From contig DASTOB010000120.1 of assembly GCA_035720425.1 (NCBI GenBank), positions 229 to 64,228 of the forward strand: 64,000 nt of DNA, read 5' to 3'. Every line of letters begins with the position of its first letter. Position 1 is the stretch's first letter. Positions 39,781 through 58,735 of this stretch are shown here, one piece after another. The notes under the pieces were generated by a model. The model was not told the origin of the DNA, did no database searches, and saw only the letters and a program-made list of their open reading frames with translations. This stretch comes from Candidatus Limnocylindrales bacterium (GTDB lineage Bacteria > Chloroflexota > Limnocylindria > Limnocylindrales > CSP1-4). The translations under genes were made by a program, and so were the position numbers.

Positions 39781-40518
39781 TCACCCGCCGCGTCGGCGCA
39801 GCCAGCGCGCGGGTGCGGTGAGCGTGCCGACCGCGGTCGAGAACGCCGGGCTGTGGCGGAGATTCCGCACGTACCGCCACTGGCGACGTCGGTCGACGCA
39901 CACCTTGGTCGTCTCGACCTCCGGCGTTGTCACGCCGAGCGTGCGAGCCAGGTTGGCAAGCGTTCCCACCCAGAAGCGATCGTTCATCCGGTTCGCGCCG
40001 AGCAGGTAGCTGAGCTCGATGAGCGGATCGCTCGTTCGCTCCAGCGCCTGGGCCTGGGCGATCGTGACGTCGCCGTCGCGATACGCGGAAAAGGTGATCC
40101 ATGCCGACAGGGCGTGTCCTTCCGGGGTCATGAACGTGAACGACTCCGCGTCAGCGTAGATGACGAGCACGCCCGTCGACATCCTGACCGGCGCCCCCGG
40201 GACGGCCTGGATCTCGAGCAGCGCGACCTCGCCCGGGGCGATGCCGGCCAGCGGCGCGTAGAACCGGTTGCCCTTCGGCCAGAACGATGGGAACTGCTCC
40301 TTCCAGTGGGCGACAACGTGCTCCGGCGTCGCGTCCGACCCATCGAGCCGAACGCGGAACGTCTTCTGCCACATCTGCCCGAAGCCCTGGACGGGGCCGG
40401 CGACGCGCTTGCCGGTGACGGTGTCCATGCCGGCCCCGGTGGCCGTCGTGGCCAGCCGGTCGACCGGGCGCGCCCACGACTCCCGGTCACGCGGCGTGCG
40501 CGGTTCGGTGGCGGTCAT
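39781..40518 (-). CDS. Conserved hypothetical protein, possibly DUF1990-like
   Basis: AGGAGG RBS. GPVQGFGQMWQK, FTFMTPEGH...WITFSA. Strong coding bias. The family assignment is tentative. Confidence 0.7.
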   Translation of the reverse strand: MTATEPRTPRDRESWARPVDRLATTATGAGMDTVTGKRVAGPVQGFGQMWQKTFRVRLDGSDATPEHVVAHWKEQFPSFWPKGNRFYAPLAGIAPGEVALLEIQAVPGAPVRMSTGVLVIYADAESFTFMTPEGHALSAWITFSAYRDGDVTIAQAQALERTSDPLIELSYLLGANRMNDRFWVGTLANLARTLGVTTPEVETTKVCVDRRRQWRYVRNLRHSPAFSTAVGTLTAPARWLRRRGG

Positions 40519-40577
40519 CACGGTCCTCCTGACTCTGTCCTCGCGATTGCCCCGCGGGGATCCGAATGCCTGGTTCC

Positions 40578-40610
40578 GTTCTACGCGCCGGCCGTCCGGG
40601 AATCGTTACG
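40578..40610 (-). promoter_or_regulatory. SARP-type heptamer direct repeat, site A
   Basis: Minus strand CGTAACG-ATTC-CCGGACG-N9-TAGAAC, inside the 3' end of the membrane gene and upstream of the DUF1990-like gene. Confidence 0.65.
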
Positions 40611-41810
40611 AGCCGTTCCTCGAAGCCAGATGGTGAGCCGACTCGGGGCGACCGCGCCCTCGACGGAATCACTCAGCGAGGCGGCGATCGACGTCGTGTC
40701 GAGCACGCCGCGCAAGCGCAGGCCGAAGGTGTCGACCGTTCGCTGCGCGTCGACCCGCGCCCGGTGGAAGCGCCGGTCGACCGCCGTCTGGACCCGGTGC
40801 CGGACGGGCTGGAAGAGTGCAGCGACCGCGAGCGTGGACCCGGCGACAGCCAGCGTGTTCCCACTCGTCCAGGGCGCGAGCAGACCCTGCAGGCTCACAA
40901 CCAGGATTGCGAACGTCGCGACGAGGATGGCGGTGACGATCGCCCAGCCCAGCGTCCGGCTAATGATCCGATCGATCTCGAAGAGGCGGTAGCGAAGGAC
41001 GGCGATCCCGGTGGCCGTCGGCAGAGCAATCCACGCGACGAAAGCCGGCGCGACGGCGACCAGGAGTGGCCCGACGTTCCTGGTGTCCGTTCCGGGCGCC
41101 ACGCCCGCCACGGCAAAGGAGACAAGGATCGTCAGCACTCCGATCGGCAGCAGGGCAAGCGCCGCGAGGATCCAGCGCAGCTGCAGCCGTTCCGTTCCGC
41201 TCGAGCGACGATACCGCCGCACCAGCGTGAGGAAGCCGGCTGCCCAGAGAACGATCTGGCCGCCGCTCAGAACCGTCCGGTACGGAACGAGGCTCCACGG
41301 CAGCTCGGCCTCGGGAGCGATCGCAACCGGGTTGGGCATTCCTCCGGGGAGGCCGGTCACGTGCGGTGGGTAGATGGTCGGCGCGAAGGCCACGAGCCCG
41401 AACAGGAGGGTCGACAGCGCACACAGGGCTGCCGGGGCACCGCCGACGAACCGGGGCCGGCCACCACCCGGGAAGTCGAGCACGAGGGCGAGGAGTGCGA
41501 CTGCCGCCGCCGGCCAGCCAGACGCCGCAAGCCAGGCGAGGAGGCGGTCGGCGAGCGGCGCGCTTCCGTCCGCCAGCGCCACCGGGTCGCCGGACACTTT
41601 CAGCGTCGCGAACAACCCGGCCCAGCCGATCGCGATGAGCAGCCAACCGACGGCGTTCCACGGGCGTCGGACTGCAAGCAGACCCCCGACGGCGGCGTAG
41701 GGCAGGGAGTAGACGAGCGTCAGGACGTCGCCGGCGGCCAGTGCGAGGGCGACCGCGGCAGCCGTAGCAAGGCCGACGCCGAGGCCGCGCAGCAGGCTGA
41801 GACACGCCAT
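40581..41810 (-). CDS. Multi-TM sensor-like membrane protein ending in a partial GAF (paralog 1)
   Basis: About 9-10 TM helices. VGGLLAVRRPWNAVGW, NPVAI, ERLQLRW, IAVLRYRLFEID, LFQPVRHRVQTAVDRRF, ends AVAPSRLTIWLR...RNDSRTAGA*. Confidence 0.85.
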   Translation of the reverse strand: MACLSLLRGLGVGLATAAAVALALAAGDVLTLVYSLPYAAVGGLLAVRRPWNAVGWLLIAIGWAGLFATLKVSGDPVALADGSAPLADRLLAWLAASGWPAAAVALLALVLDFPGGGRPRFVGGAPAALCALSTLLFGLVAFAPTIYPPHVTGLPGGMPNPVAIAPEAELPWSLVPYRTVLSGGQIVLWAAGFLTLVRRYRRSSGTERLQLRWILAALALLPIGVLTILVSFAVAGVAPGTDTRNVGPLLVAVAPAFVAWIALPTATGIAVLRYRLFEIDRIISRTLGWAIVTAILVATFAILVVSLQGLLAPWTSGNTLAVAGSTLAVAALFQPVRHRVQTAVDRRFHRARVDAQRTVDTFGLRLRGVLDTTSIAASLSDSVEGAVAPSRLTIWLRGTARNDSRTAGA

Positions 41811-41820
41811 CGCACGCGAA

Positions 41821-42177
41821 TCAGGTCCCGACGGCGGCGAGAGCGTCGGCCTGCGAGTCGTGGATCGCGATCGCCTCGTCGAGGCGCGTGAGCGAGAAGA
41901 TCTGGCGGTAGTGCTCGTCGAGCCCGGCCGCCAGCAGCCGCTGGCCGTTGCGCTGCGCGCGCACGAGGAGCGTCACGAGGAGGCCGATGCCGCCGCTGTT
42001 CATGTACTCGAGTCCGCCGAAGTCGAGGATGATCGTGCGCGCGCCGCCGCCGGTCGCCGTCACATAGGCGGCCATGAGCGCCGCCTCGCTGGCGCCGGTG
42101 ACGTCGCCGTCGATCCGGATGACGCTGGCCGTCGGATCGTCGGTCGAGCGCAGGTCGATACGGGTCGGATCGGTCAT
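41821..42177 (-). CDS. STAS-domain anti-sigma factor antagonist (RsbV-like)
   Basis: VIRIDGDVT, IILDFGGLEYMNSGGIGLLV (phospho-Ser), IFSLTRLD. Confidence 0.93.
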   Translation of the reverse strand: MTDPTRIDLRSTDDPTASVIRIDGDVTGASEAALMAAYVTATGGGARTIILDFGGLEYMNSGGIGLLVTLLVRAQRNGQRLLAAGLDEHYRQIFSLTRLDEAIAIHDSQADALAAVGT

Positions 42178-42518
42178 CGGTTCCCCTCCTGCTCGTCGTC
42201 CAGGACCACGTAGTCGGACAGCCTCGTGATCCGGAAGATCTCGCGGTAGTGCTCCGTCAGGTGGACGGCGTGGACCTCGCGGCCATCGCGCCGGGCCTCC
42301 GCAAGGAGGCGGACGATGAGCGCGATGCCGGTGCTGTTGATGTAGCCGACGCCGGCGAAGTCGAGGATGAGCCGCCGGGCGCCGAGCGCGGCCACGCTCA
42401 CGTACGCGTCGGCCAGGCCGGCGTCCGCGGCGACGTCGATGTCGCCGCCGAGCCGGATCCGGACCGCGTCCGGGACCGTCTCCACGTCCGCCCGGAAGCG
42501 GCGGGTCTGCACGTCCAT
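42174..42518 (-). CDS. STAS-domain anti-sigma factor antagonist (RsbV-like)
   Basis: IRLGGDID, LILDFAGVGYINSTGIALIV, IFRITRL. Confidence 0.93.
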   Translation of the reverse strand: MDVQTRRFRADVETVPDAVRIRLGGDIDVAADAGLADAYVSVAALGARRLILDFAGVGYINSTGIALIVRLLAEARRDGREVHAVHLTEHYREIFRITRLSDYVVLDDEQEGNR

Positions 42519-44132
42519 TCAGGACTCCTTGCGGGCGAGTCGCAGGGTGACCGTCTGGCCATCCCCGTCGCTTGCCACGTCCATCTGGTCGACCATGTTT
42601 CGGATGAGGAACAGGCCCCAGCCGCGCGGCTTCTGCTCGCCGGCCAGCTTGGCGTCAATGTCCGGGGCCTCGGCGTCGTCGGGGACCGGGCCCGACAGGG
42701 CCCGATCCGTGATCCGCACGACCACCTCGGCCGGCGTCGCGGCCACGACGAGGTCGACCGGCACGTCCTCGCGTCCAAGGCTCCCGTACTCGATCGCGTT
42801 CATCGTCGCCTCGCTGACGGCGGTCTTGAGCCGCTCGAGGCGGCGGCCGTTCAGCCCGAGGGGTGCGACGACGTCGGCGACCCGGTCCATTGCGCTCCGC
42901 TCGTTGCCGATCGCACCGGGCACGGAGAACGCCGCGAGCAGCTCCTCGCCCGGGTCCGCCCCGGCCGGTTCGGCGGCGGCGACCTCGCCGGCGCGGCGCA
43001 GGGCGACCATCGTGATGTCGTCCTCCTGCTCCCAGGTCGGTCCGGTGAACGCATGCAGGTGTTCGAGGACCCGATCGATGACATCGGACCCCGGAACGTC
43101 GAGCGTTGCGAATTCGTCGCGCAGGCGCGGGAAGCCGTACATCTCGCGCTCCGGGCCGTGGGCCTCGACGACCCCGTCGGAGTAGAGGAGGACGGTCGAT
43201 CCGGGTTGAATGACGGCCTCGGTCTCCTCGTACGCAACCCCAGCGAGCAGCCCAAGCGGCATGCCGGTGGCCCGGATTTCGGTGACCCGGTCGGCCGAGC
43301 GCACGTACGGCAGGTTGTGCCCGGCATTGGCGATGACCATCCGTCCCGATGCCGGTTCGAGGAACACGAGCAGGCACGTGACGAACATGCGGTTCGGCAT
43401 CTCCGGCACGAGCAATTCATTCGCCCGCGCGAGCACGGCGCCCGGCGACGGCGACCGCGACGCCTCGGCCCGCAGGATCGAATGGGTGCGGGCCATGACG
43501 AGCGCGGCCGGCACGCCCTTGTCGGTCACGTCGCCGACGACGATCGCGATCCGTCCGTCCGGCAGCTCGATGAAGTCGTAGAAGTCGCCGCCCACGGCGC
43601 GCGCGGGTCCGTAGTACGCGGCGACCTGCCACTCGGGGAGCCGCGGCAGGTCGCGCGGGAGGAACTGCTGCTGGATGAGCGTGGCGACCCGGAGCTCTTG
43701 GTCGATCCGCTCGCGCTCTGCCGCTTCGGCGGCCTGTTCCTGGACGAGCTGGGCGACGCGGATCGCGGGGGCCGCCTGGGCGGCCAGCGTGGCGAGGAGC
43801 CGCCGGTCGTCGGTCGAGTATTCCTGCTCCGACAGGCGTGGCCCCAGGTACAGGGCCCCGATCAACTCGCCGGACGTGACGAGGGGAACGATCAGCGAGA
43901 TGCCGGCGGCGCGCAGTTCGGCCAGGGCCGGGGAGGCGAGCTCGAGGCGGTAGACGTCGACCGCGCCGCTCGCGCCCTGGAGGTAGGCGAAGAGGGGGTC
44001 CGACGGCGCGATCTCGACGGCCGGCGCCTCAGAGACGGTCGGCACGGCAACTGGCTTGGCCACGACGGGTGCCTGGAGCGCGGTGTCGCCACCGAGTCCG
44101 ATGGTCCGGCGAATGGTGCGGAGCAACGTCAT
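42519..44132 (-). CDS. Partial GAF + SpoIIE/RsbU PP2C phosphatase + RsbW-type HATPase fusion
   Basis: GAF C-half SLIVPLVTSGELIGALYLG...DRRLLATLAAQAAPAI. PP2C VGGDFYD, GDVTDKG, LYSDGVVE, EDDITMV. RsbW AVSEATMNAIEYG, RGWGLFLIRNMVD. Confidence 0.92.
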   Translation of the reverse strand: MTLLRTIRRTIGLGGDTALQAPVVAKPVAVPTVSEAPAVEIAPSDPLFAYLQGASGAVDVYRLELASPALAELRAAGISLIVPLVTSGELIGALYLGPRLSEQEYSTDDRRLLATLAAQAAPAIRVAQLVQEQAAEAAERERIDQELRVATLIQQQFLPRDLPRLPEWQVAAYYGPARAVGGDFYDFIELPDGRIAIVVGDVTDKGVPAALVMARTHSILRAEASRSPSPGAVLARANELLVPEMPNRMFVTCLLVFLEPASGRMVIANAGHNLPYVRSADRVTEIRATGMPLGLLAGVAYEETEAVIQPGSTVLLYSDGVVEAHGPEREMYGFPRLRDEFATLDVPGSDVIDRVLEHLHAFTGPTWEQEDDITMVALRRAGEVAAAEPAGADPGEELLAAFSVPGAIGNERSAMDRVADVVAPLGLNGRRLERLKTAVSEATMNAIEYGSLGREDVPVDLVVAATPAEVVVRITDRALSGPVPDDAEAPDIDAKLAGEQKPRGWGLFLIRNMVDQMDVASDGDGQTVTLRLARKES

Positions 44133-44138
44133 GACGGT

Positions 44139-44171
44139 GTTCTACGCCTCCTTCGTCCGGAAATCGTTACG
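44139..44171 (-). promoter_or_regulatory. SARP-type heptamer direct repeat, site B
   Basis: CGTAACG-ATTT-CCGGACG-N9-TAGAAC-N6-ATG(44132). Confidence 0.7.
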
Positions 44172-45410
44172 GGATCGGAGCCACACACCGGCGGCAGCCG
44201 GGCTCATGGCGGCACCAACGGTGTTCTTGAAGTCGCCCTCGAGATCAGCCAGGTCGAGCTGTGAGCGCAGCCGCTCGCCGAACGCGGCCGCGACGCGCTC
44301 GCCGTCGTAGCGCGCCCGGTCGAAGCGCCGGTCGACCACGCGCTGGACCCTCGAGCGGAGTGGTGCGAACAGCGCGGCAACGACCAGCGTCGAGCCGGCT
44401 ACCGCGAGGGTGTCCCCTCCCGTGATCGATCCGAGGAGGTTGGACAGTCCGACGACGAGGATGATGAACGAGCCGACCAGCGCTCCGCTGACGATCGTCC
44501 ACGCGATCGTCCGGCTGATGATCCGGTCGATGTCGAACAAGCGATAGCGCAGGATCGCGGCCCCGATGGCCAGCGGCAGGGCTAGCACACCGAAGTACGC
44601 GAGGACGGCCGTAATGAGGATCCCGTCATCGACGCGCAGGGCAGACTCGATGGCAGTTCCGACAAATGCCACGATCACGAAACCCATTGCCGCGAGCAAC
44701 CAGCGGATCTGCAGGCGCTCGACGACGGTCCCGCGGCGATACCGGGTCACGAGCCCGAGCGCGCCGAAGGCGATCACCGCGATCAGTTGAAGCAGCAGGC
44801 TGTCGGCGAGGGGTGCCAGCGCCGCCGGCCAGCCCACCAATCCGAACGGATTGCCGCCGCCGCCCTCGAACAGCGGACCCGGGCGAAGCGCCAGTGCCGC
44901 CAGGCTCGTGCTCGTGATCCCGATGATCGCCAGCGATGGCGCGCGCCAGCGCGGCGACGGCAGCGTTCCCGTGGGGAAGAGAAGCGGCAGCCAACCGACG
45001 ATGAGGGCCATGCCCGGGTAGGAGAGCAGGAGCCCAGCCCACTGGATCACGCCGGCGGTCCCCCGGTCGGCCCCAGGCGTCAGCTCGCCACCGGCCGTCC
45101 AGATCAGCCCCAGCAGGGCGAACAGGGGGCCGCACAGCAGCATCAACAGGCCGATCGCGTGGCCGGGACGGCGCCACGCGATCACCGCTCCGACGAGCGA
45201 GAACAGCAGCGCGGTCGCGTTGAAGACGAGGACGAGCGCGATCGGCTCGACACCACCCGACTCACGCCGCGCATTGAGGCTGAGCAGGGCAACGGACAGA
45301 CCAAGCGACGCGGCGATCGAGGCCACCATCGCGGCGACCGCGAGTGGGCCGGGGCGGTGCTTGACCGACCCTCGCGGGTCATCTTGGCGCAGCGATCGTG
45401 TCGCGCTCAT
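44142..45410 (-). CDS. Multi-TM sensor-like membrane protein ending in a partial GAF (paralog 2)
   Basis: VGAVIAWRRPGHAIG, FPTGTLPSPRWR, NPFG, ERLQIRW, ILRYRLFDID, LFAPLRSRVQRVVDRRF, ends AMSPAAAGVWLRSRNDFRTKEA*. Start re-assigned to ATG 45410. Confidence 0.87.
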   Translation of the reverse strand: MSATRSLRQDDPRGSVKHRPGPLAVAAMVASIAASLGLSVALLSLNARRESGGVEPIALVLVFNATALLFSLVGAVIAWRRPGHAIGLLMLLCGPLFALLGLIWTAGGELTPGADRGTAGVIQWAGLLLSYPGMALIVGWLPLLFPTGTLPSPRWRAPSLAIIGITSTSLAALALRPGPLFEGGGGNPFGLVGWPAALAPLADSLLLQLIAVIAFGALGLVTRYRRGTVVERLQIRWLLAAMGFVIVAFVGTAIESALRVDDGILITAVLAYFGVLALPLAIGAAILRYRLFDIDRIISRTIAWTIVSGALVGSFIILVVGLSNLLGSITGGDTLAVAGSTLVVAALFAPLRSRVQRVVDRRFDRARYDGERVAAAFGERLRSQLDLADLEGDFKNTVGAAMSPAAAGVWLRSRNDFRTKEA

Positions 45411-45456
45411 CGCCGCCACGGCCCGACTGCAGCGGCACGGTGCGCGACGTGGTCGA

Positions 45457-45660
45457 TCATCGTTCCACCCGGGCGCGTGGCCGCAGCCAAATGTCCGCGC
45501 CAAACGGTCGGACCGCGCGGTGCGCGGTCGTGACTACCAGTTCGATCGGTCCCGACGATCGCTGCTTCAGGGTCAGGCCGCCGATCGGAATTGCCACGGA
45601 CACCACACATGCGGGCAGCCAGGGAGCGGCGACGTCGGGCCGAACGCTGTCGATGCGCAC
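45457..45660 (-). CDS. Putative 67-aa microprotein carrying only the AVxP-x5-WLR half-GAF tail
   Basis: VRIDSV...TTAHRAVRPFGADIWLRPRARVER* has the same P(+6)W-L-R spacing as the three membrane paralogs. Its GTG sits exactly 6 nt after the hexamer position of SARP site C. Confidence 0.55.
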   Translation of the reverse strand: MRIDSVRPDVAAPWLPACVVSVAIPIGGLTLKQRSSGPIELVVTTAHRAVRPFGADIWLRPRARVER

Positions 45661-45666
45661 GTCAGG

Positions 45667-45699
45667 AGTTTCTCCGAGAAACGTTCCGGGAACGTTACG
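45667..45699 (-). promoter_or_regulatory. SARP-type heptamer direct repeat, site C (divergent intergenic region)
   Basis: CGTAACG-TTCC-CGGAACG-N9-GAAACT-N6-GTG(45660). The regulator's own TACCGT-N6-GTG lies 20 bp away on the + strand. Confidence 0.7.
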
Positions 45700-45730
45700 G
45701 AATCGTGGCCACAAGCGCTACCGTTACGCC

Positions 45731-48688
45731 GTGCCTGGTTCGGATCGCCTCGACATCCGGCTGCTCGGCCCGCTCGAGATCGTGGCGGACGGCCGGCCAC
45801 TCGTCGTTGACACGCGCAAGGCGCTCGCGATCGTGGCGCTCCTCGCCGCGGAGCGTCGATCGTTCGCACGGGAGGAGCTGGCGGCGCTGCTCTGGCCGGA
45901 CGCGGACGACGAGTCGGCCCGCGGGGCCCTGCGTCGCACGCTGTCGTCGCTGCGTGCGGCGCTTGGGGGCCGATGGCTGCGCGCGGATCGCTCGACCGTC
46001 GGGCTCGACCCGGACGGCGTGTCGGTCGACCTCGATCGGGCTACGGCCGTTGCGGCAGGCGGGTCTGTCGGCGACCTCGCCGCCGCGGCGGACCTGCATC
46101 GTGGCCCGTTCATGGCCGGCTTCACCCTGCGCGACGCGCCGGAGTTCGACGACTGGCAGGCGGCCCGCGCGACTGCCGTCGCCGCCCAATTCGCCGGGCT
46201 GCTCGATCGACTCACGTCGGCCTTGCACGAGGCGGGCGATGCGGCCGGGGCCGTGGCGGCGGCGCGTCGGAGGATCGACCTCGACCCGCTCGACGAGGGC
46301 GGTCAGCGACGGCTCATCGAACTCCTCGCCGCGACGGGCGATCGATCCGGGGCCATTCGCCAGTACCGCGCCTGTGTCGCCGTGCTCGAGGCGGAGCTCG
46401 GGGTCCCGCCGCTGGCCGAGACCACCGAACTCTACGAACGCGTCCGGGACGACCGGGTCAGCACGTCAGCCGCGGTCGCGCCGCTGACTTCACCACCTTC
46501 GCCGGTTGCCGGAGCTCCGCGCCTTCCGGCTGCCGATGCACCACCATTCGTGGGCCGCGCCGGCGAACTCGAGACCCTGCTCGCAGCCCACGGCGCGGTC
46601 GACCGCGACGGCGCGCTCGCGATCGTCGAGGGCGAGGTCGGGATCGGCAAGACCCGCCTCGCGGAGGTGTTCAGCGACGCCGTGCGTCGCCGCGGCGCGC
46701 GCGTGCTCGGTGCGCGCTGCTATCCGGGCGAGCAGTCGGTCGCCTACGGTCCGATCATCGCGCTGCTCCGAGCCGGCCTGGCGCTGCCGGGCGGCGCGGA
46801 CCGGCTCGCCTCGCTCTCGGAGGTGGCGCGAACCGCCCTCACATCCCTCGATCCGGCGGTGAGCGCCGGCGGCGGACGTCGTGGCCGATCGCTCGTCCCC
46901 CTCGACGAGGGTGCCGCCCGCGCGCGATTGCTCGACGCGATCGCCGACGGGTTGACCGCCCTCACGGTGGGTGACGCAGCGGGGCTGGTCTGGCTCGACG
47001 ACGTCAACTGGGCGGACGAGGCGACGCTCGAGACGATCGCCTACCTCGGCCGCCGCCTCGCCGGCCGGTCGCTGCTCGTGCTCGTGACGTGGCGGCGCGA
47101 GGACCTCGACGGCATCGCGCTCCAGACGGTCGCCGGATTCGAGCGGACCGCCCGCGCCCACGTCCGTCTGCGGCGACTCGACCGAGATGCCGTTGCATCG
47201 CTCATCGGCGCCCTCGCCCCCGACGAGTCACGGCAGCCCGGCGTGATCGACGCGCTCGCGACGCGATCCGAAGGCGTTCCGCTGTACATCGTCGAGGCGC
47301 TTGCCGCTCCACGGCCGTCGGCCGCACCTGCGATCGCAACGGCGACGGCTACCGCCATTCCGCCTGGCGTGCGGGCGCTCGTCGCCGAGCGGCTGGCGTC
47401 GCTCGATGGTGCAGCCGGGCAGTTGATCGCGGCCGCCGCGGTGATCGGCCGATCGTTCGACGCGGGGATGTTGCGGCACGTCAGCGGCCGAACGGAAGAC
47501 GAGGTGATCGACGGCCTCGACCGGCTCGTGCGCCGGGGGTTCGTGCGCGAAACGGCGACCGCGACCGTGCGCGAGCCTGCGTTCGACTTCGTCCACGGCA
47601 GCGTTCGCGAGGTCGTCCTCGAGGGTTCCAGCCTGACCCGGAAGCGCCTCCTCCACCGGCGTGTCGCCGAGGCGGTCGCCGCCAGGCCGGTCGCTTCGCT
47701 CGGCGAGCCTGCCGTCGTCGACCGGCTCGACGGTTCCGTGGCGGCGTCGGCCGCGGTTCACCTCCGTGATGCCGGCCACGATCGCGAGGCTGCCCTGGCC
47801 TTTGCCAGGGCAGCAGACCATGCGCGATCGGTCCACGCCAACGCGGAGGCGGCCGAGCTCGCCCGGTCGGCGCTGGCACTCGGGCACCCGGACCCGGCCC
47901 GACTCCACGTCGTCCTCGGCGACATCGCCACGCTGTCCGGACGCTACGGAGAGGCGATTGCCGAATTCGAGGGCGCGGCGGCCGCCGCGTCAGCCGCGTC
48001 AGCCACGTCACCCGCGTCGACCTTGTCGGCCGCGTCGGCCGACGACGAGGCCCGGGACCGCCTGGCCGACCTCGAGCATCGGCTCGCCCTCGTCCATCAG
48101 CGCCGTGGCGATCCCGACACGGCCGACACCCACTTCGTCGCCGCGCTCGAGTTGACCGCCGACCGAGCGACGCGGGCGCGCATCCTCGCCGACCGGAGCC
48201 TCGGCGCGCATCTCGCGGGTCGGGGCGAGCAGGCCGCCGCGCTGGCGGCCGACGCGCTTGCCGCGTCCGACGAGTCCGGTGACGACCTCGCGCGGGCCAG
48301 GGCGGCCAACGTTGCCGGCGTCCTGGCCACCGAGCGCGGCGATCCCGCCGCGGGGCGGGTGCTTATCGAGCGGAGCCTCGCCCTCGCCGAGGCACGCGGC
48401 GAGATCCCGGCTCGGATCGCCGCCCTCAACAACCTCGCGCGCGCGGTGGCGGCGACCGGAGACGTCGACCTCGCGATCGAGTTCACCGATCTCGCCCTCG
48501 GCCTGTGCCGCTCGATCGGCGATCGACACCGCGAGGCGGCCCTCCACAACCATCGGGCCGACCTGCTCCGCGAGGCGGGGCGGCGTGACGCGGCCATCGA
48601 CGAGCTGAAGCAGGCGGTGGCGATCTTCGCCGATGTCGGCGAGCCGGGGGAGCTCGAGCCAGGCAAGTGGCGCCTGGCCACGTGGTGA
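45731..48688 (+). CDS. AfsR/SARP-family transcriptional activator (OmpR-type wHTH, BTAD, STAND AAA, TPR)
   Basis: IRLLGPLEI...RKALAIVALL...REELAALLWPD...ARGALRRTLSSLR. BTAD HRGPFMAG...FDDW...DPLDE...AIRQY...LGVPP. Walker A GEVGIGKT, WLDDVNWAD, EGVPLY. TPRs. GTG 45731 is preceded by TACCGT-N6. Confidence 0.93.
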   Translation: MPGSDRLDIRLLGPLEIVADGRPLVVDTRKALAIVALLAAERRSFAREELAALLWPDADDESARGALRRTLSSLRAALGGRWLRADRSTVGLDPDGVSVDLDRATAVAAGGSVGDLAAAADLHRGPFMAGFTLRDAPEFDDWQAARATAVAAQFAGLLDRLTSALHEAGDAAGAVAAARRRIDLDPLDEGGQRRLIELLAATGDRSGAIRQYRACVAVLEAELGVPPLAETTELYERVRDDRVSTSAAVAPLTSPPSPVAGAPRLPAADAPPFVGRAGELETLLAAHGAVDRDGALAIVEGEVGIGKTRLAEVFSDAVRRRGARVLGARCYPGEQSVAYGPIIALLRAGLALPGGADRLASLSEVARTALTSLDPAVSAGGGRRGRSLVPLDEGAARARLLDAIADGLTALTVGDAAGLVWLDDVNWADEATLETIAYLGRRLAGRSLLVLVTWRREDLDGIALQTVAGFERTARAHVRLRRLDRDAVASLIGALAPDESRQPGVIDALATRSEGVPLYIVEALAAPRPSAAPAIATATATAIPPGVRALVAERLASLDGAAGQLIAAAAVIGRSFDAGMLRHVSGRTEDEVIDGLDRLVRRGFVRETATATVREPAFDFVHGSVREVVLEGSSLTRKRLLHRRVAEAVAARPVASLGEPAVVDRLDGSVAASAAVHLRDAGHDREAALAFARAADHARSVHANAEAAELARSALALGHPDPARLHVVLGDIATLSGRYGEAIAEFEGAAAAASAASATSPASTLSAASADDEARDRLADLEHRLALVHQRRGDPDTADTHFVAALELTADRATRARILADRSLGAHLAGRGEQAAALAADALAASDESGDDLARARAANVAGVLATERGDPAAGRVLIERSLALAEARGEIPARIAALNNLARAVAATGDVDLAIEFTDLALGLCRSIGDRHREAALHNHRADLLREAGRRDAAIDELKQAVAIFADVGEPGELEPGKWRLATW

Positions 48689-48728
48689 CGCGCTGAGCGA
48701 CGCGCCGCCCGATCGGCCGAGGAAGCGG

Positions 48729-49949
48729 TCAGCCGTCGCCCCGCCCGGCGCGCAGCCAGAGCGCGATCCGATCCGGCTCGACGGCGCTCGCGGCGACGGC
48801 CACTGATCGCTCTCGCAGCGTGGCGAGGTCGACCTCGTCACGCAGGTGGTCGGCGAACGCCGCGGCCAATCGCTCCGCGTCGAACCGCGCGCGGTGGAAG
48901 CGCCGATCGACGGCGCGCTGCGTCCGGGCCCGGACGGGCGCGAAGAGGCCCGCCACGAGCAAGGTCGACGCAGCGACGACGAGCGTGTCTGCCTGGACGA
49001 TCGGAGCCAGCACCCCCTGGAGGACGAGGTTCGCGCCGAGGAACACGATCGTCAGGACGGCCGTTACCGCCGCGTAGCCGATCGTCCGGCTGACGATGCG
49101 GTCGATCTCGTACAGCCGGTAGCGAAGGATCGCGATCCCGATCCCGATCGGGATGAGCAGTGGCGAGACGACGACGAGGATCAAGGCGACCGTCGCGATT
49201 GGATCGCTCCAGTTCGAGACGAACAGGATCGCCATGCCGGACGCGGCCGCCGCGGCCGCGGACAGCACCCAGCGGATCTGCGCGCGGACGCGAGGGGACG
49301 ACCGTCGGTACGTCACGAGCGAGGCAGCAAGCGACAGGAGCGCTGCGAGGCTGAGGAAGCGGGGTGCCCATTCGGCCGCCAGATCGAAGACCTCCACGGG
49401 GAGACTGAAGATGGCAATCGGGTTGGCCGAAATGAGGATCCACGAGATCGGCACCTCACCCGGACGCCAGAGCTGGAGTGCCTGGAGTACGGCGAAGACG
49501 ACGATCAGTGCATCGATGATCCGCCACTGCCTGCCCGGTAGGCGGCCGTCCGGAAACCGGGCCAGGATCACCACGATCCCGACGAGGCCGAACCATTGCA
49601 GGTACGCGGTCAGGTTCGCGCCGACGATCAGGACCGCCGGCAATCGTCCTGGCGCTACGTCGGCAATCGCGACGATCGCCACGATGGCGAGCTGCACGCC
49701 AAGCACAAGGCCGGTCGCGAGGCAGATCCGACCGATCACGTTGCCCGGCCGCCGGGACACGATGAGCGCTCCGACCATCGTGAAGCCGACCGCCAGCGCG
49801 GGCGACCAGACCAGCTCGGTCACGTCGGCGTAACCGCGTCGAATGAACACCACGACCCAGATGCCGATGATCGCGACGGCGATCGCGAACAGCAGGGCGA
49901 GCAGGAGCCCCCGCAATCTCCACGCTGCGCGATCGGGCGGGGCGATCAC
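48729..49949 (-). CDS. Multi-TM sensor-like membrane protein ending in a partial GAF (paralog 3)
   Basis: VGALIVSRRPGNVIG, FPDGRLPGRQWR, NPIAI, RAQIRW, IAILRYRLYEID, LFAPVRARTQRAVDRRF, ends AVEPDRIALWLRAGRGDG*. GTGA-coupled to the nucleoside hydrolase gene. Confidence 0.87.
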   Translation of the reverse strand: MIAPPDRAAWRLRGLLLALLFAIAVAIIGIWVVVFIRRGYADVTELVWSPALAVGFTMVGALIVSRRPGNVIGRICLATGLVLGVQLAIVAIVAIADVAPGRLPAVLIVGANLTAYLQWFGLVGIVVILARFPDGRLPGRQWRIIDALIVVFAVLQALQLWRPGEVPISWILISANPIAIFSLPVEVFDLAAEWAPRFLSLAALLSLAASLVTYRRSSPRVRAQIRWVLSAAAAAASGMAILFVSNWSDPIATVALILVVVSPLLIPIGIGIAILRYRLYEIDRIVSRTIGYAAVTAVLTIVFLGANLVLQGVLAPIVQADTLVVAASTLLVAGLFAPVRARTQRAVDRRFHRARFDAERLAAAFADHLRDEVDLATLRERSVAVAASAVEPDRIALWLRAGRGDG

Positions 49950-51388
49950 TCGGCCACCTCAAACGACGCCGCGAGGCCATAGGTGAGGTTGGGCAACTCT
50001 CCCGTGATGCACAACCCGCGGAACGATCCGTCCCTGACCTCGACGAGCCCGGAGCCGGTGGCGTTCCTCTCCGCTTCGGCGAAACCGGCGATGAGCACCC
50101 AGCTCGGCGGCTGCCCGCCCTCCTCGCCAGCAAGCTCGGCGAGCAGCGTCTCGAACTCGGCCCACCCGTGGGGTGGCTGAATGCCGACGACGACCAGTCC
50201 GGCGGGCCCCGACGTCTCGTTCACGAGGTGGGCACGGTACATCCCGGCTTGGGCGGGCGTCGAGCCCTCCGCTGAGCAGGTCCTACCGTCCCATCGGACG
50301 GTCATGTCGCCGCGGATGGCGAAGGGATCCGCTCGCGGTCCCCCGCGGCGGAGCGCCTGAAGCAGCGCGGCCTCGACCGCCGGCCGATCGGCCGCCGTGG
50401 CGAACCGGATCGGCCGGCCGGCGGGATCGCGATCGATCCGACCGGCGGCGGTCGCGCTGACCGTCGCATCCGCCCACGTGACGAGGTCCTGATCGGAGAC
50501 CGCGAGCGCGGCGAGTTCGTCCCACAGCTGGCCACCGGGAAGCGACAGGCGCTCCGGGAACCGGACGAGCAGCTCGTAGGCGAGGTCCGCGCCCGCGGCC
50601 GCGTGATCCTCCTCGAGGCGTTCGAGGAGGTCTGGCGGGACGGGCACGTCATCGGTCGCGTCGAGCGGGACGAGCGTGACCGGGACGTCGAGCGCGAGGA
50701 CCGCGGTGAACGCGTCGGCATCGGCCACGACGTTCCACTCCAGCCGGTCCGCCTCGGCCACGCCGTCGACGAGGACGTTGCCGGGCGCGTCGATCGCGCC
50801 GGCCATCGCGTGGATGCCCGCCACGTCGTCGACGAGCGCAGGGTCGGCCGCGAACGCATCAGCGATGTTCGTCCACGGACCCAGGGCAATGATCGTGATC
50901 GGCTCCGCGCTCGCGGCGATGACCCGCGCGATGAGGTCGGCCGCCTCCTCGGGAATCCCGGCTTCGACCACCGGTGGAATGTCGAGGCCGTACGCGCCGT
51001 CGGCCTGATCGCGCCACTCGGCTGGGAACGGTCGGCCATTCGGTCCGATGCTCTCGCGCCCGCAGGCGAACGGGACGTCCGTCCGCTCGAGCTGCTCGAG
51101 CAGGTAGCGGGTCACCCGTCGGCCGCCCGCGCAGTGCACGAGCCCGGTCCCGTCGATCGCGATGGCCCGGACGTCGAGCGCCGGGTCTCGCAGTAGGACG
51201 GCGACCGCGAACAGGTCGCTGATGTCCATGTCCGCGTCGACGATGACCGGTCGGGGCAGTCCGGACGGTGGCTCCGCTACGGGCGGCAGGCTGGGAGACG
51301 TCGTCGACGGCGAGCACGCGGCGGCGAGACCAGTTGCCCAGAGCGCGGCGGTGACGAGCAGGCCGAAACGACGGTTCCGTGGGTTCAT
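49946..51388 (-). CDS. Lipoprotein nucleoside hydrolase (IU-NH fold) with extra C-terminal domain
   Basis: Lipobox GLAAA|C. VIVDADMDISD (DxDxxxDD variant), IALGPWTNIA, MAGAI...GN, EWNVVAD, LVPLDAT, LWDELAA. Confidence 0.85.
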   Translation of the reverse strand: MNPRNRRFGLLVTAALWATGLAAACSPSTTSPSLPPVAEPPSGLPRPVIVDADMDISDLFAVAVLLRDPALDVRAIAIDGTGLVHCAGGRRVTRYLLEQLERTDVPFACGRESIGPNGRPFPAEWRDQADGAYGLDIPPVVEAGIPEEAADLIARVIAASAEPITIIALGPWTNIADAFAADPALVDDVAGIHAMAGAIDAPGNVLVDGVAEADRLEWNVVADADAFTAVLALDVPVTLVPLDATDDVPVPPDLLERLEEDHAAAGADLAYELLVRFPERLSLPGGQLWDELAALAVSDQDLVTWADATVSATAAGRIDRDPAGRPIRFATAADRPAVEAALLQALRRGGPRADPFAIRGDMTVRWDGRTCSAEGSTPAQAGMYRAHLVNETSGPAGLVVVGIQPPHGWAEFETLLAELAGEEGGQPPSWVLIAGFAEAERNATGSGLVEVRDGSFRGLCITGELPNLTYGLAASFEVAE

Positions 51389-58136: not shown

Positions 58137-58735
58137 GCGACCCGATCGGGACGGTCCCGGGACGGGTCGTGTCGGCTGCCGATGCGGCCGATCGGGCCGT
58201 GCTCGATCGGATCGGCGCCGGTCAGCTCGACGCGCTCGAGGACCTCTACGATCGGTACCGCACGATGGCCTATTCGATCGCCTACCGGATCACCGGCGAC
58301 GCGACGCTCGCCGAGGACGTCGTCCAGGACGCCTTCCTCGGGGCGTGGCGCAATGCCGCTCGCTACATCGAGGGGCGGGGCAGCGTGAAGACCTGGCTCC
58401 TGTCGATCGTTCATCACCGCTCGATCGACGCCGTCCGGCGGCGCCGGCCCACGACGGAGCTCCCTGACGGGGAAGCGGCGCCGCCCGCGACGCTCACCGT
58501 GCCGGACGTCTGGGCGGAAGTGGCCGGCAGTCTCGACCGGGACGCGGTGCGTCGCGCGCTTGCCACGCTGTCGGACGTCCAGCGCGAAGCGATCGAGCTC
58601 GCCTACTTCGGTGGCCTCACCCAGGTCGAGATCGCTGACCGGACCGGAACCCCGCTCGGGACCGTCAAGAGCCGGATGCGCCTGGGCCTGCTTGCCCTGC
58701 GCCGCGAACTGACCGGCGCCGAGGGAACCCGATGA
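58133..58735 (+). CDS. ECF RNA polymerase sigma factor (SigK-like)
   Basis: ALEDLYDRY, AEDVVQDAFL, WLLSIVHHRSIDAVR, QREAIELAYFGGLTQVEIA...GTVKSRMR. Confidence 0.93.
   Translation: MSDPIGTVPGRVVSAADAADRAVLDRIGAGQLDALEDLYDRYRTMAYSIAYRITGDATLAEDVVQDAFLGAWRNAARYIEGRGSVKTWLLSIVHHRSIDAVRRRRPTTELPDGEAAPPATLTVPDVWAEVAGSLDRDAVRRALATLSDVQREAIELAYFGGLTQVEIADRTGTPLGTVKSRMRLGLLALRRELTGAEGTR

Follow-up and report, generated by a model that had tools for sequence, protein, structure and literature searches.

How signals reach the PPM phosphatases of partner-switching pathways is an open question, and the known answers are sensor domains carried in cis or adaptors such as RsbT. In Bacillus subtilis the PPM phosphatase RsbU is switched on in trans by RsbT, which binds its N-terminal domain and linker, and linker-mediated control has been proposed for GAF-, PAS- and RsbT-controlled PPM phosphatases (PMC12143880). 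Here we describe a gene cluster from Candidatus Limnocylindrales bacterium (Chloroflexota), contained in a 64,000-nucleotide stretch of contig DASTOB010000120.1 (assembly GCA_035720425.1; the whole stretch is referred to as the window), which points to a third solution, a sensor domain divided between a family of membrane receptors and an enzyme. The cluster encodes three related membrane proteins (sensors A, B and C), a protein with part of a GAF domain followed by phosphatase and kinase domains (the enzyme), and two STAS proteins; coordinates are collected in Table 1.

Several described systems share parts of this arrangement. The B. subtilis stressosome, with its RsbR paralogues and RsbS, feeds several paralogous sensors into one phosphatase as we propose for the window (PMC12143880), but the N-terminal domain of RsbU is complete, its adaptor RsbT resembles a kinase, the cytoplasmic sensors act by way of a large complex, and domain completion is not involved. 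RsbZ of Clostridioides difficile and OsaC of Streptomyces coelicolor control STAS/anti-sigma modules through a GAF, a helical linker and a PPM domain, as in the window, although both are soluble proteins that carry a complete GAF domain in cis. Mycobacterium tuberculosis Rv1364c (PAS, RsbU-like PP2C, RsbW-like kinase and STAS) likewise has a PP2C and a GHKL kinase in one chain acting on a STAS domain, and the structure of its RsbU-RsbW part (3ke6) is the best structural match to the model described below (Foldseek E 9e-17); it differs in its intact cytoplasmic PAS domain and fused STAS domain, and has neither a membrane receptor nor a split domain.

The closest relatives are uncharacterised single-chain proteins with transmembrane (TM), GAF and SpoIIE-type PP2C domains, some with an added HATPase_c_2 domain. 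Such proteins, among them P0135, P0146 and P0152 (Caldilinea sp.), have the same last-two-TM module as the sensors (RYRLxDID...DRRFYRxxYD), followed by a GAF domain, a linker and the PP2C domain. P0135 also has the kinase domain of the window enzyme, and its neighbourhood is that of the split loci, with a divergent BTAD-AAA_16 regulator, two STAS genes and a gene for a 267-aa protein; no free sensors are found nearby. In these homologues the GAF domain is complete in cis and there is one receptor per enzyme, whereas in the window the GAF domain is cut after strand beta1 and the receptor half is multiplied.

A fold completed by a segment of another polypeptide, as we propose here, is known from naturally split inteins, from donor-strand complementation in chaperone-usher pili and from engineered split reporters, none of which is a signalling sensor domain shared by many membrane receptors and one enzyme. 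Full-text literature searches recovered no natural split, partial or truncated GAF domain in signalling and no description of the sensor family. The split-GAF wiring thus appears to be undescribed; its parts and the logic of PP2C, kinase and STAS are well established, and it is the coupling that seems new.

Halves of a GAF domain in separate proteins

The initial annotation, made from the sequence alone, held that the sensors carry the N-terminal portion of a GAF domain and the enzyme the remainder, and this division is borne out by fused homologues in which a full GAF match spans both pieces. Pfam mapping of the enzyme also agrees with the domain layout that had been read from it, a linker and a partial GAF ahead of intact PP2C and RsbW-type kinase domains. 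GAF_3 covers residues 26-124, corresponding to profile positions 39-127 of 129, and GAF_2 covers residues 73-124 (positions 88-135 of 136); by itself the enzyme does not match a whole GAF profile (PF01590, PF13185 or PF13492), the first ~38 profile positions being missing.

Single-chain homologues were found by using the sensor B/enzyme junction, read through its stop codon, as a query. In P0135 (919 aa, from an Actinomycetota metagenome-assembled genome) GAF_3 aligns at residues 378-500 with profile positions 1-127, and in P0146 GAF aligns at residues 374-517 with positions 1-132 (E 1.8e-11). The GAF match in the fused TM-GAF-PP2C(-kinase) proteins extends from the helix that corresponds to the sensor tail into the equivalent of the N-terminus of the PP2C protein, where it ends. 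Residue by residue, the sensor tail DLADLEGDFKNTVGAAMSPAAAGVWLR falls on the first GAF helix and strand of the fused proteins and the enzyme segment VEIAPSDPL...AAPAIRVAQL on the rest of the domain, and between the two the fused proteins have a loop that varies in both length and sequence. This alignment, together with the GAF profile coverage, places the cut at the variable loop, immediately behind strand beta1 of the GAF domain with its WLR motif.

Sensor tail and enzyme N-terminus together match the whole GAF profile, as the unsplit homologues do, and when each tail is joined to the half-GAF in silico the Pfam alignment extends to profile positions 1-26 with a gain of 2.4-4.6 bits. A profile of the junction region also spans whole solved GAF domains, residues 7-161 of 3oov and 12-159 of 3eea, with weak E values of 0.004-0.02. 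A first hint of the split may be seen in the NCBIfam model for the TM-GAF histidine kinase PrsK (TIGR02916), separate parts of which are matched by sensor C (weakly, at positions 124-347, the region from the TM segments to the start of the GAF) and by the enzyme (positions 409-469).

A few 'fused' reading frames of unusual length, about 640-1410 aa, are probably assembly or gene-calling artefacts. P0123, P0127, P0129 and L008 (G021:C1:3424467-3427775) were rejected as true fusions because their link stretches read as frame-shifted tail sequence, and they were not used.

The membrane sensors

The sensors are, as annotated, paralogous multi-TM proteins without a catalytic domain: sensor B is 40% identical to A (BLASTP E 2e-58) and 37% identical to C (E 5e-48), and no Pfam or NCBIfam domain is assigned to them. 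A rough hydropathy count suggests 9-12 TM segments ahead of a tail of 65-104 residues that is rich in K and R. That they stop right after a common segment is also correct, with A, B and C ending 6-13 residues past WLR; in 12 paralogues from three genomes these three residues do not vary, and none of the proteins extends more than 13 residues beyond them. HisKA_7TM (PF16927) has zero matches at E<=1 in the three window sensors, and a precomputed match to it is present in a few sensor homologues. Homologues of sensor B number more than 2,900 at E<=0.001; of the best 120, nearly all have lengths of 395-430 aa. Protein P0001, a 422-aa gene call, is 100% identical to sensor B, for which the open reading frame (ORF) listing also allows a longer TTG start at 45503.

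Conservation is distributed unevenly along these proteins. For 215 sensors taken from 72 loci, identity in the N-terminal membrane region is 29% within loci and 27% between them; the corresponding values for the last-two-TM module and tail, the most conserved part of the sensor, are 57-68% and 44-52%. Orthologues of sensor B in other genomes are 53-55% identical as against 31-43% for paralogues, which suggests that the paralogues are old and specialised. At the DNA level, tandem sensor genes at two loci (L001 4005-9664 and L002 2257-9066) are 78-94% identical in the 3' module among most copies and ~57% identical elsewhere, with one L002 copy set apart (3' module 65-69%). This pattern points to concerted evolution of the shared 3' module by gene conversion.

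In the window genome the sensor membrane module also has a distant relative that is joined to a complete GAF domain and a HisKA_3/HATPase histidine kinase (G000:C188:6574-9003), and this fusion in cis indicates that the module serves in ordinary unsplit kinases too.

Distribution and evolution of the split form

A scan of one genome per species yielded at least 541 relatives of the enzyme, the best 80 of which were used to count loci. Between one and ten sensors lie within 10 kb of a half-GAF enzyme in 78 of these 80 species-level loci, none of them fused to it. Nearly all of the sensor ORFs (305 of 308) are on the strand of the enzyme, none shares its frame without an intervening stop, and most end 0-10 residues past the end of the sensor profile. 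According to the record titles the loci belong to Chloroflexota (Candidatus Limnocylindrales) and Actinomycetota (Thermoleophilia, Solirubrobacterales, Nocardioidaceae). The split arrangement has been retained in both phyla and in hundreds of species-level genomes.

The pairing holds within the window's own family, where strong sensor matches occur in nine of 25 genomes (as many as about 24 in one genome) and all nine match the enzyme N-terminus; there is one such match in each of eight, and that of the ninth, G021, is frameshift-broken. A further six genomes have a weak sensor match or two in longer open frames, 10 have none, and no sensor matches occur in the small-genome sister family. The window genome itself has six sensors, three of them in the window, and one half-GAF enzyme; a second half-GAF protein was not found in it. 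Two other assembled genomes have an array of four or five sensors in tandem and an SRPBCC gene, together with the half-GAF enzyme, both STAS genes, the protein of no known family and the amine oxidase, with the same regulator alongside. Recurrence of this gene set is far beyond chance, and the concern that split forms might be sporadic pseudogene fragments is removed by the more than 2,900 sensor homologues, the co-occurrence in the family and the 78 of 80 loci.

In a tree of the half-GAF and PP2C region the fused forms are mostly basal and 79 of the 81 split forms make up one group (SH-aLRT 94), within which the fused P0135 is nested, next to an actinobacterial locus of the split type (support 99). 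Most simply, the tree would reflect a single ancient fission that spread between the two phyla and at least one subsequent re-fusion. In P0135 only 12 residues separate WLR from the half-GAF, as would be expected of a re-fusion if both pieces form one domain.

P0135 lacks a short peptide that is found at the N-terminus of split-type enzymes and is missing from ancestral-type fused forms. Its consensus is MTFIxSIRRTVGRG / MTxxxxxRRxxG, with M1 and R9 conserved in at least 90% of 64 split-type homologues, and its possible roles include those of an additional docking element, a membrane anchor and a stand-in for strand beta2.

Structure prediction

We modelled with AlphaFold a single chain that runs from residues 334-422 of sensor B across the read-through junction into residues 1-385 of the enzyme, using an alignment of fused, sensor and enzyme sequences. 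This joined model has a mean predicted local distance difference test score (pLDDT) of 89, with 92-95 for the helix (model residues 54-69) and strand (73-78) of the tail and 96-98 for the GAF remnant; the junction including the enzyme N-terminal peptide falls below 50. Because beta1 of the tail is assigned as a strand it would require a pairing partner, which we infer from the secondary-structure assignment. The 50 PDB matches listed for the joined model in a Foldseek search are all to PP2C domains, including 3ke6, SpoIIE, RssB and SiaA.

When the enzyme is modelled alone, residues 1-34 are disordered and the GAF remnant is predicted as two short helices, a two-strand hairpin and a long C-terminal helix, without alpha1 or beta1 and with pLDDT of 75-85 around residues 91-120; one helix spans residues 107-157. 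With only this two-strand hairpin, the enzyme N-terminus is not predicted to be a complete stand-alone GAF domain; a complete one would have spoken against the annotated split. The N-terminal peptide has pLDDT of 27-47 and is predicted to be disordered in both models.

Phosphatase, kinase and STAS proteins

The catalytic half of the enzyme is that of a PPM, SpoIIE-type PP2C phosphatase, and catalysis is predicted: PF07228 aligns over profile positions 1-191 of 192 (E 9.5e-51), and the metal-binding motifs GGDFYDF, GDVTDKG, YSDG and EDDIT can be read directly. The kinase domain matches HATPase_c_2 (E 4.3e-19), contains NAIEYG and GWGLFLI, and has weak matches to the NCBIfam models for RsbA, SpoIIAB and RsbW. 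The two STAS genes reported to follow the enzyme gene are confirmed. Both products are classed as STAS anti-sigma-factor antagonists by PF01740; their TIGR00377 scores, 53.4 bits for STAS 1 and 52.9 bits for STAS 2, fall just short of the cut-off of 53.45. The Ser of their NSTG and NSGG motifs stands at the usual phosphorylation site of STAS proteins.

Of the canonical partner-switching parts, the phosphatase, kinase and STAS antagonist are in the locus, and a sigma factor is not. The initial annotation had described the enzyme as a phosphatase/anti-sigma hub; the resemblance of its kinase domain to that family stands, but 'anti-sigma' is to be read as family resemblance only, since a sigma factor is not linked to the cluster. 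The genome has 31 sigma-70-family genes, the closest of which is ~8 kb from sensor C. An ECF-type gene of this family at 58244-58447 (plus strand; Sigma70_r2, 79 bits), ~8 kb beyond sensor C and outside the conserved cluster, is the window's sole sigma factor.

A model for signal input and its alternatives

We consider it on balance probable that the cluster encodes a partner-switching-type module from which the receptor was split off by gene fission within the GAF domain, and that the sensor tails complete this domain in trans. Each tail would supply alpha1 and beta1 to the incomplete GAF of the enzyme, and docking would rebuild non-covalently the receptor-GAF-linker-PP2C chain that is a single polypeptide in the relatives. 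Docking, or a signal-dependent change in the docked complex, would reach the PP2C domain by way of the C-terminal GAF helix and the helical linker of ~50 residues; between them, the phosphatase and the fused kinase would determine how far the two STAS proteins are phosphorylated, and the STAS/kinase pair would control some target.

Because several sensors share one enzyme they would be alternative or competing inputs. The earlier suggestion that docked sensors act as interchangeable inputs to one switch fits the presence of six sensors and one enzyme, the diverged membrane parts with a conserved tail, and the co-occurrence across the family, and many membrane sensors probably do plug into one switch. 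More tentatively, and as a possibility that falls a little short of probable, up to two dozen receptors per genome may each donate the first GAF helix and strand and compete or exchange on one hub, so that the docked receptor and its ligand state set the output.

If assembly in trans is true, it would explain thousands of 'output-less' membrane proteins annotated as hypothetical, and would provide a simple, testable model of many inputs converging on one switch and a natural case of domain complementation in bacterial signalling. Such many-to-one signalling would be distinct from two-component systems, chemoreceptor arrays and the stressosome, and would offer a natural template for modular split-sensor engineering.

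A number of observations weigh against completion of the GAF domain in trans. The tail alone has no Pfam match and the score gained by joining it is small, and the AlphaFold support comes from a single read-through chain and not from a complex. Likeness of tails within a locus is weakened as evidence of co-adaptation by the gene conversion noted above. A sigma factor is not a conserved member of the cluster, none being present at the window locus or at L001, L002 or L089. Three sensors of the window genome are far from the enzyme among unrelated genes: C137 is near a complete-GAF histidine kinase and a response regulator, and C118 and C167 are among housekeeping or metabolic genes (as judged by eye, with no family search). 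The isolated half-GAF is still modelled fairly confidently as a compact shape, and the conserved N-terminal peptide could be the real docking element. Finally, mutual information with average product correction, computed for 215 sensor/enzyme pairs from 72 loci, places one tail-by-half-GAF coupling in the top 100 as against 4.2 expected; the top pairs look like clade markers, and the test is underpowered because the sequences are too few and phylogenetically structured.

The last three of these observations are among those that favour the strongest alternative, in which the sensors signal through another surface, for example with the enzyme N-terminal peptide engaging the cytoplasmic face or the last-two-TM module, while the tail serves folding or dimerisation of the sensor itself and the half-GAF is a stable reduced domain. 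Retention of MTxxxxxRRxxG in split-type enzymes, the missing covariation signal, the moderate to high confidence with which the half-GAF is modelled on its own and the conservation of the last-two-TM module as strongly as the tail would all be accounted for. Yet the tail is homologous to GAF alpha1-beta1 of single-chain relatives and keeps its W, L and R invariant in stand-alone sensors, the peptide is predicted to be disordered in both models, and the nested fusion P0135 links WLR to the half-GAF without it. A GAF domain without its first helix and a core strand is moreover not expected to be stable, and we regard signalling through another surface as unlikely.

We find it more doubtful still that the membrane proteins are independent of the phosphatase/kinase, as transporters for instance, that only a common regulation or ancestry places them beside it, and that their tails are evolutionary leftovers. 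The sensors do lack a recognisable output domain, three copies in the window genome sit beside unrelated housekeeping genes, and one homologue is annotated as a major facilitator superfamily permease. However, every strong-sensor genome of the family has the half-GAF enzyme, the sensor ORFs within 10 kb are almost always on its strand, the tail and last-two-TM module are the best conserved part of the protein, and fused forms exist.

The TAG stop of sensor B is in frame with the enzyme ATG at 44132, three codons away, and the same in-frame TAG with a similar peptide, FRT[KR]EA*N[TS]VMT, is present in another genus (L004 1020-1700; window 44130-44153). The TAG coincides with a conserved AAGGAGG Shine-Dalgarno sequence, and it is this conserved DNA that explains why a junction peptide is kept across the stop. 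Only one of 22 closely adjacent sensor-enzyme pairs in other species shares the frame, and a tRNA with a CUA anticodon (an amber suppressor) was not found in the window genome, which is 87% complete. An only apparent split, arising by TAG read-through into one protein or from a recent nonsense mutation, pseudogene or assembly error, would find some encouragement in the shared frame and in the seemingly frameshift-made fusions (P0123, P0127, P0129 and L008), but is rejected as highly improbable given the strong Shine-Dalgarno sequence and ATG before the enzyme, the rarity of the shared frame, the missing tRNA, the ends of sensors A, C and three distant copies at the same point with no enzyme downstream, and the thousands of homologues of ~410 aa. 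We treat the in-frame TAG as an inherited coincidence, a quirk of the lineage.

Gene order and neighbouring genes

Transcription on the minus strand runs in the order sensor C, sensor B, enzyme, STAS, STAS, sensor A, the 246-aa protein and a FAD amine-oxidase-like gene, with the plus-strand SARP-like regulator gene separating sensor C from the rest of the cluster (Table 1). The sensor, enzyme and STAS genes were all confirmed to lie where they had been annotated. The G+C content of the region is 67-75%.

Table 1. Features of the split-GAF locus, in order of transcription on the minus strand (window coordinates).
Feature	Position	Strand	Remarks
Sensor C, 406 aa	48729-49949	-	Tail alpha1-beta1 at about 48750-48833
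SARP/AfsR-like regulator (BTAD, AAA_16, TPR)	45700-48688, start approximate	+	Divergent from sensor B
Sensor B, 422 aa, ~10 TM, no catalytic domain	44142-45410	-	Directly upstream of enzyme gene
Sensor B tail, residues ~384-412, LDLADLEGDFKNTVGAAMSPAAAGVWLR	44175-44261	-	Equivalent to GAF helix alpha1 and strand beta1
Sensor B/enzyme junction	44142-44153	-	Shine-Dalgarno AAGGAGG 44147-44153; sensor TAG stop 44142-44144
Half-GAF / PP2C phosphatase / RsbW-type kinase protein (enzyme), 537 aa	42519-44132	-	Sole copy in genome
Enzyme N-terminal conserved peptide MTLLRTIRRTIGLGG	44088-44132	-	Split-type enzymes only; then variable linker to residue ~38
GAF C-terminal two-thirds, enzyme residues ~39-130, VEIAPSDPL...AAPAIRVAQL	43743-44018	-	GAF_3 match
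Long helical linker from GAF remnant to PP2C, enzyme residues ~131-190	43563-43742	-	Predicted, AlphaFold model
PP2C / SpoIIE-type phosphatase domain, enzyme residues 191-380	42993-43562	-	PF07228
RsbW/SpoIIAB-type GHKL serine kinase (anti-sigma-like) domain, enzyme residues 412-531	42540-42899	-	PF13581
STAS protein 1, 114 aa, NSTG motif	42174-42518	-	PF01740 E 1.4e-12
STAS protein 2, 118 aa, NSGG motif	41821-42177	-	PF01740 E 4.8e-13
Sensor A, 409 aa	40581-41810	-	Tail alpha1-beta1 at about 40620-40706
Conserved 246-aa protein, no known family	39781-40521	-	3' of STAS genes in related loci, fused one included

The SARP-like regulator gene is conserved next to the sensor/enzyme operon, in divergent orientation, at fused as well as split loci, and is present at L001, L002 and L089; it may control the cluster or be controlled by it. 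A protein of 246-267 aa is encoded 3' of the STAS genes in the window and at L089 (5273-6076) and L002 (11448-12218). The window protein has no Pfam or PDB match; as a conserved member of the cluster it is a candidate output or target.

A short minus-strand ORF at 45457-45714, 5' of sensor B, ends in VVTTAHRAVRPFGADIWLRPRAR (45457-45540), which scores 8.2 bits against the final 23 positions of the sensor-family profile. It is most simply explained as the decayed 3' remnant of a former tandem sensor copy, and there is some room for the idea that it is expressed as a decoy peptide.

The start of sensor C overlaps the stop of an upstream 480-aa gene whose product has an inosine-uridine nucleoside hydrolase domain (PF01156, E 1e-37) behind a lipoprotein-like N-terminus; the two genes together occupy 48729-51388 on the minus strand, and the overlap suggests that sensor C is co-translated with a cell-surface enzyme.

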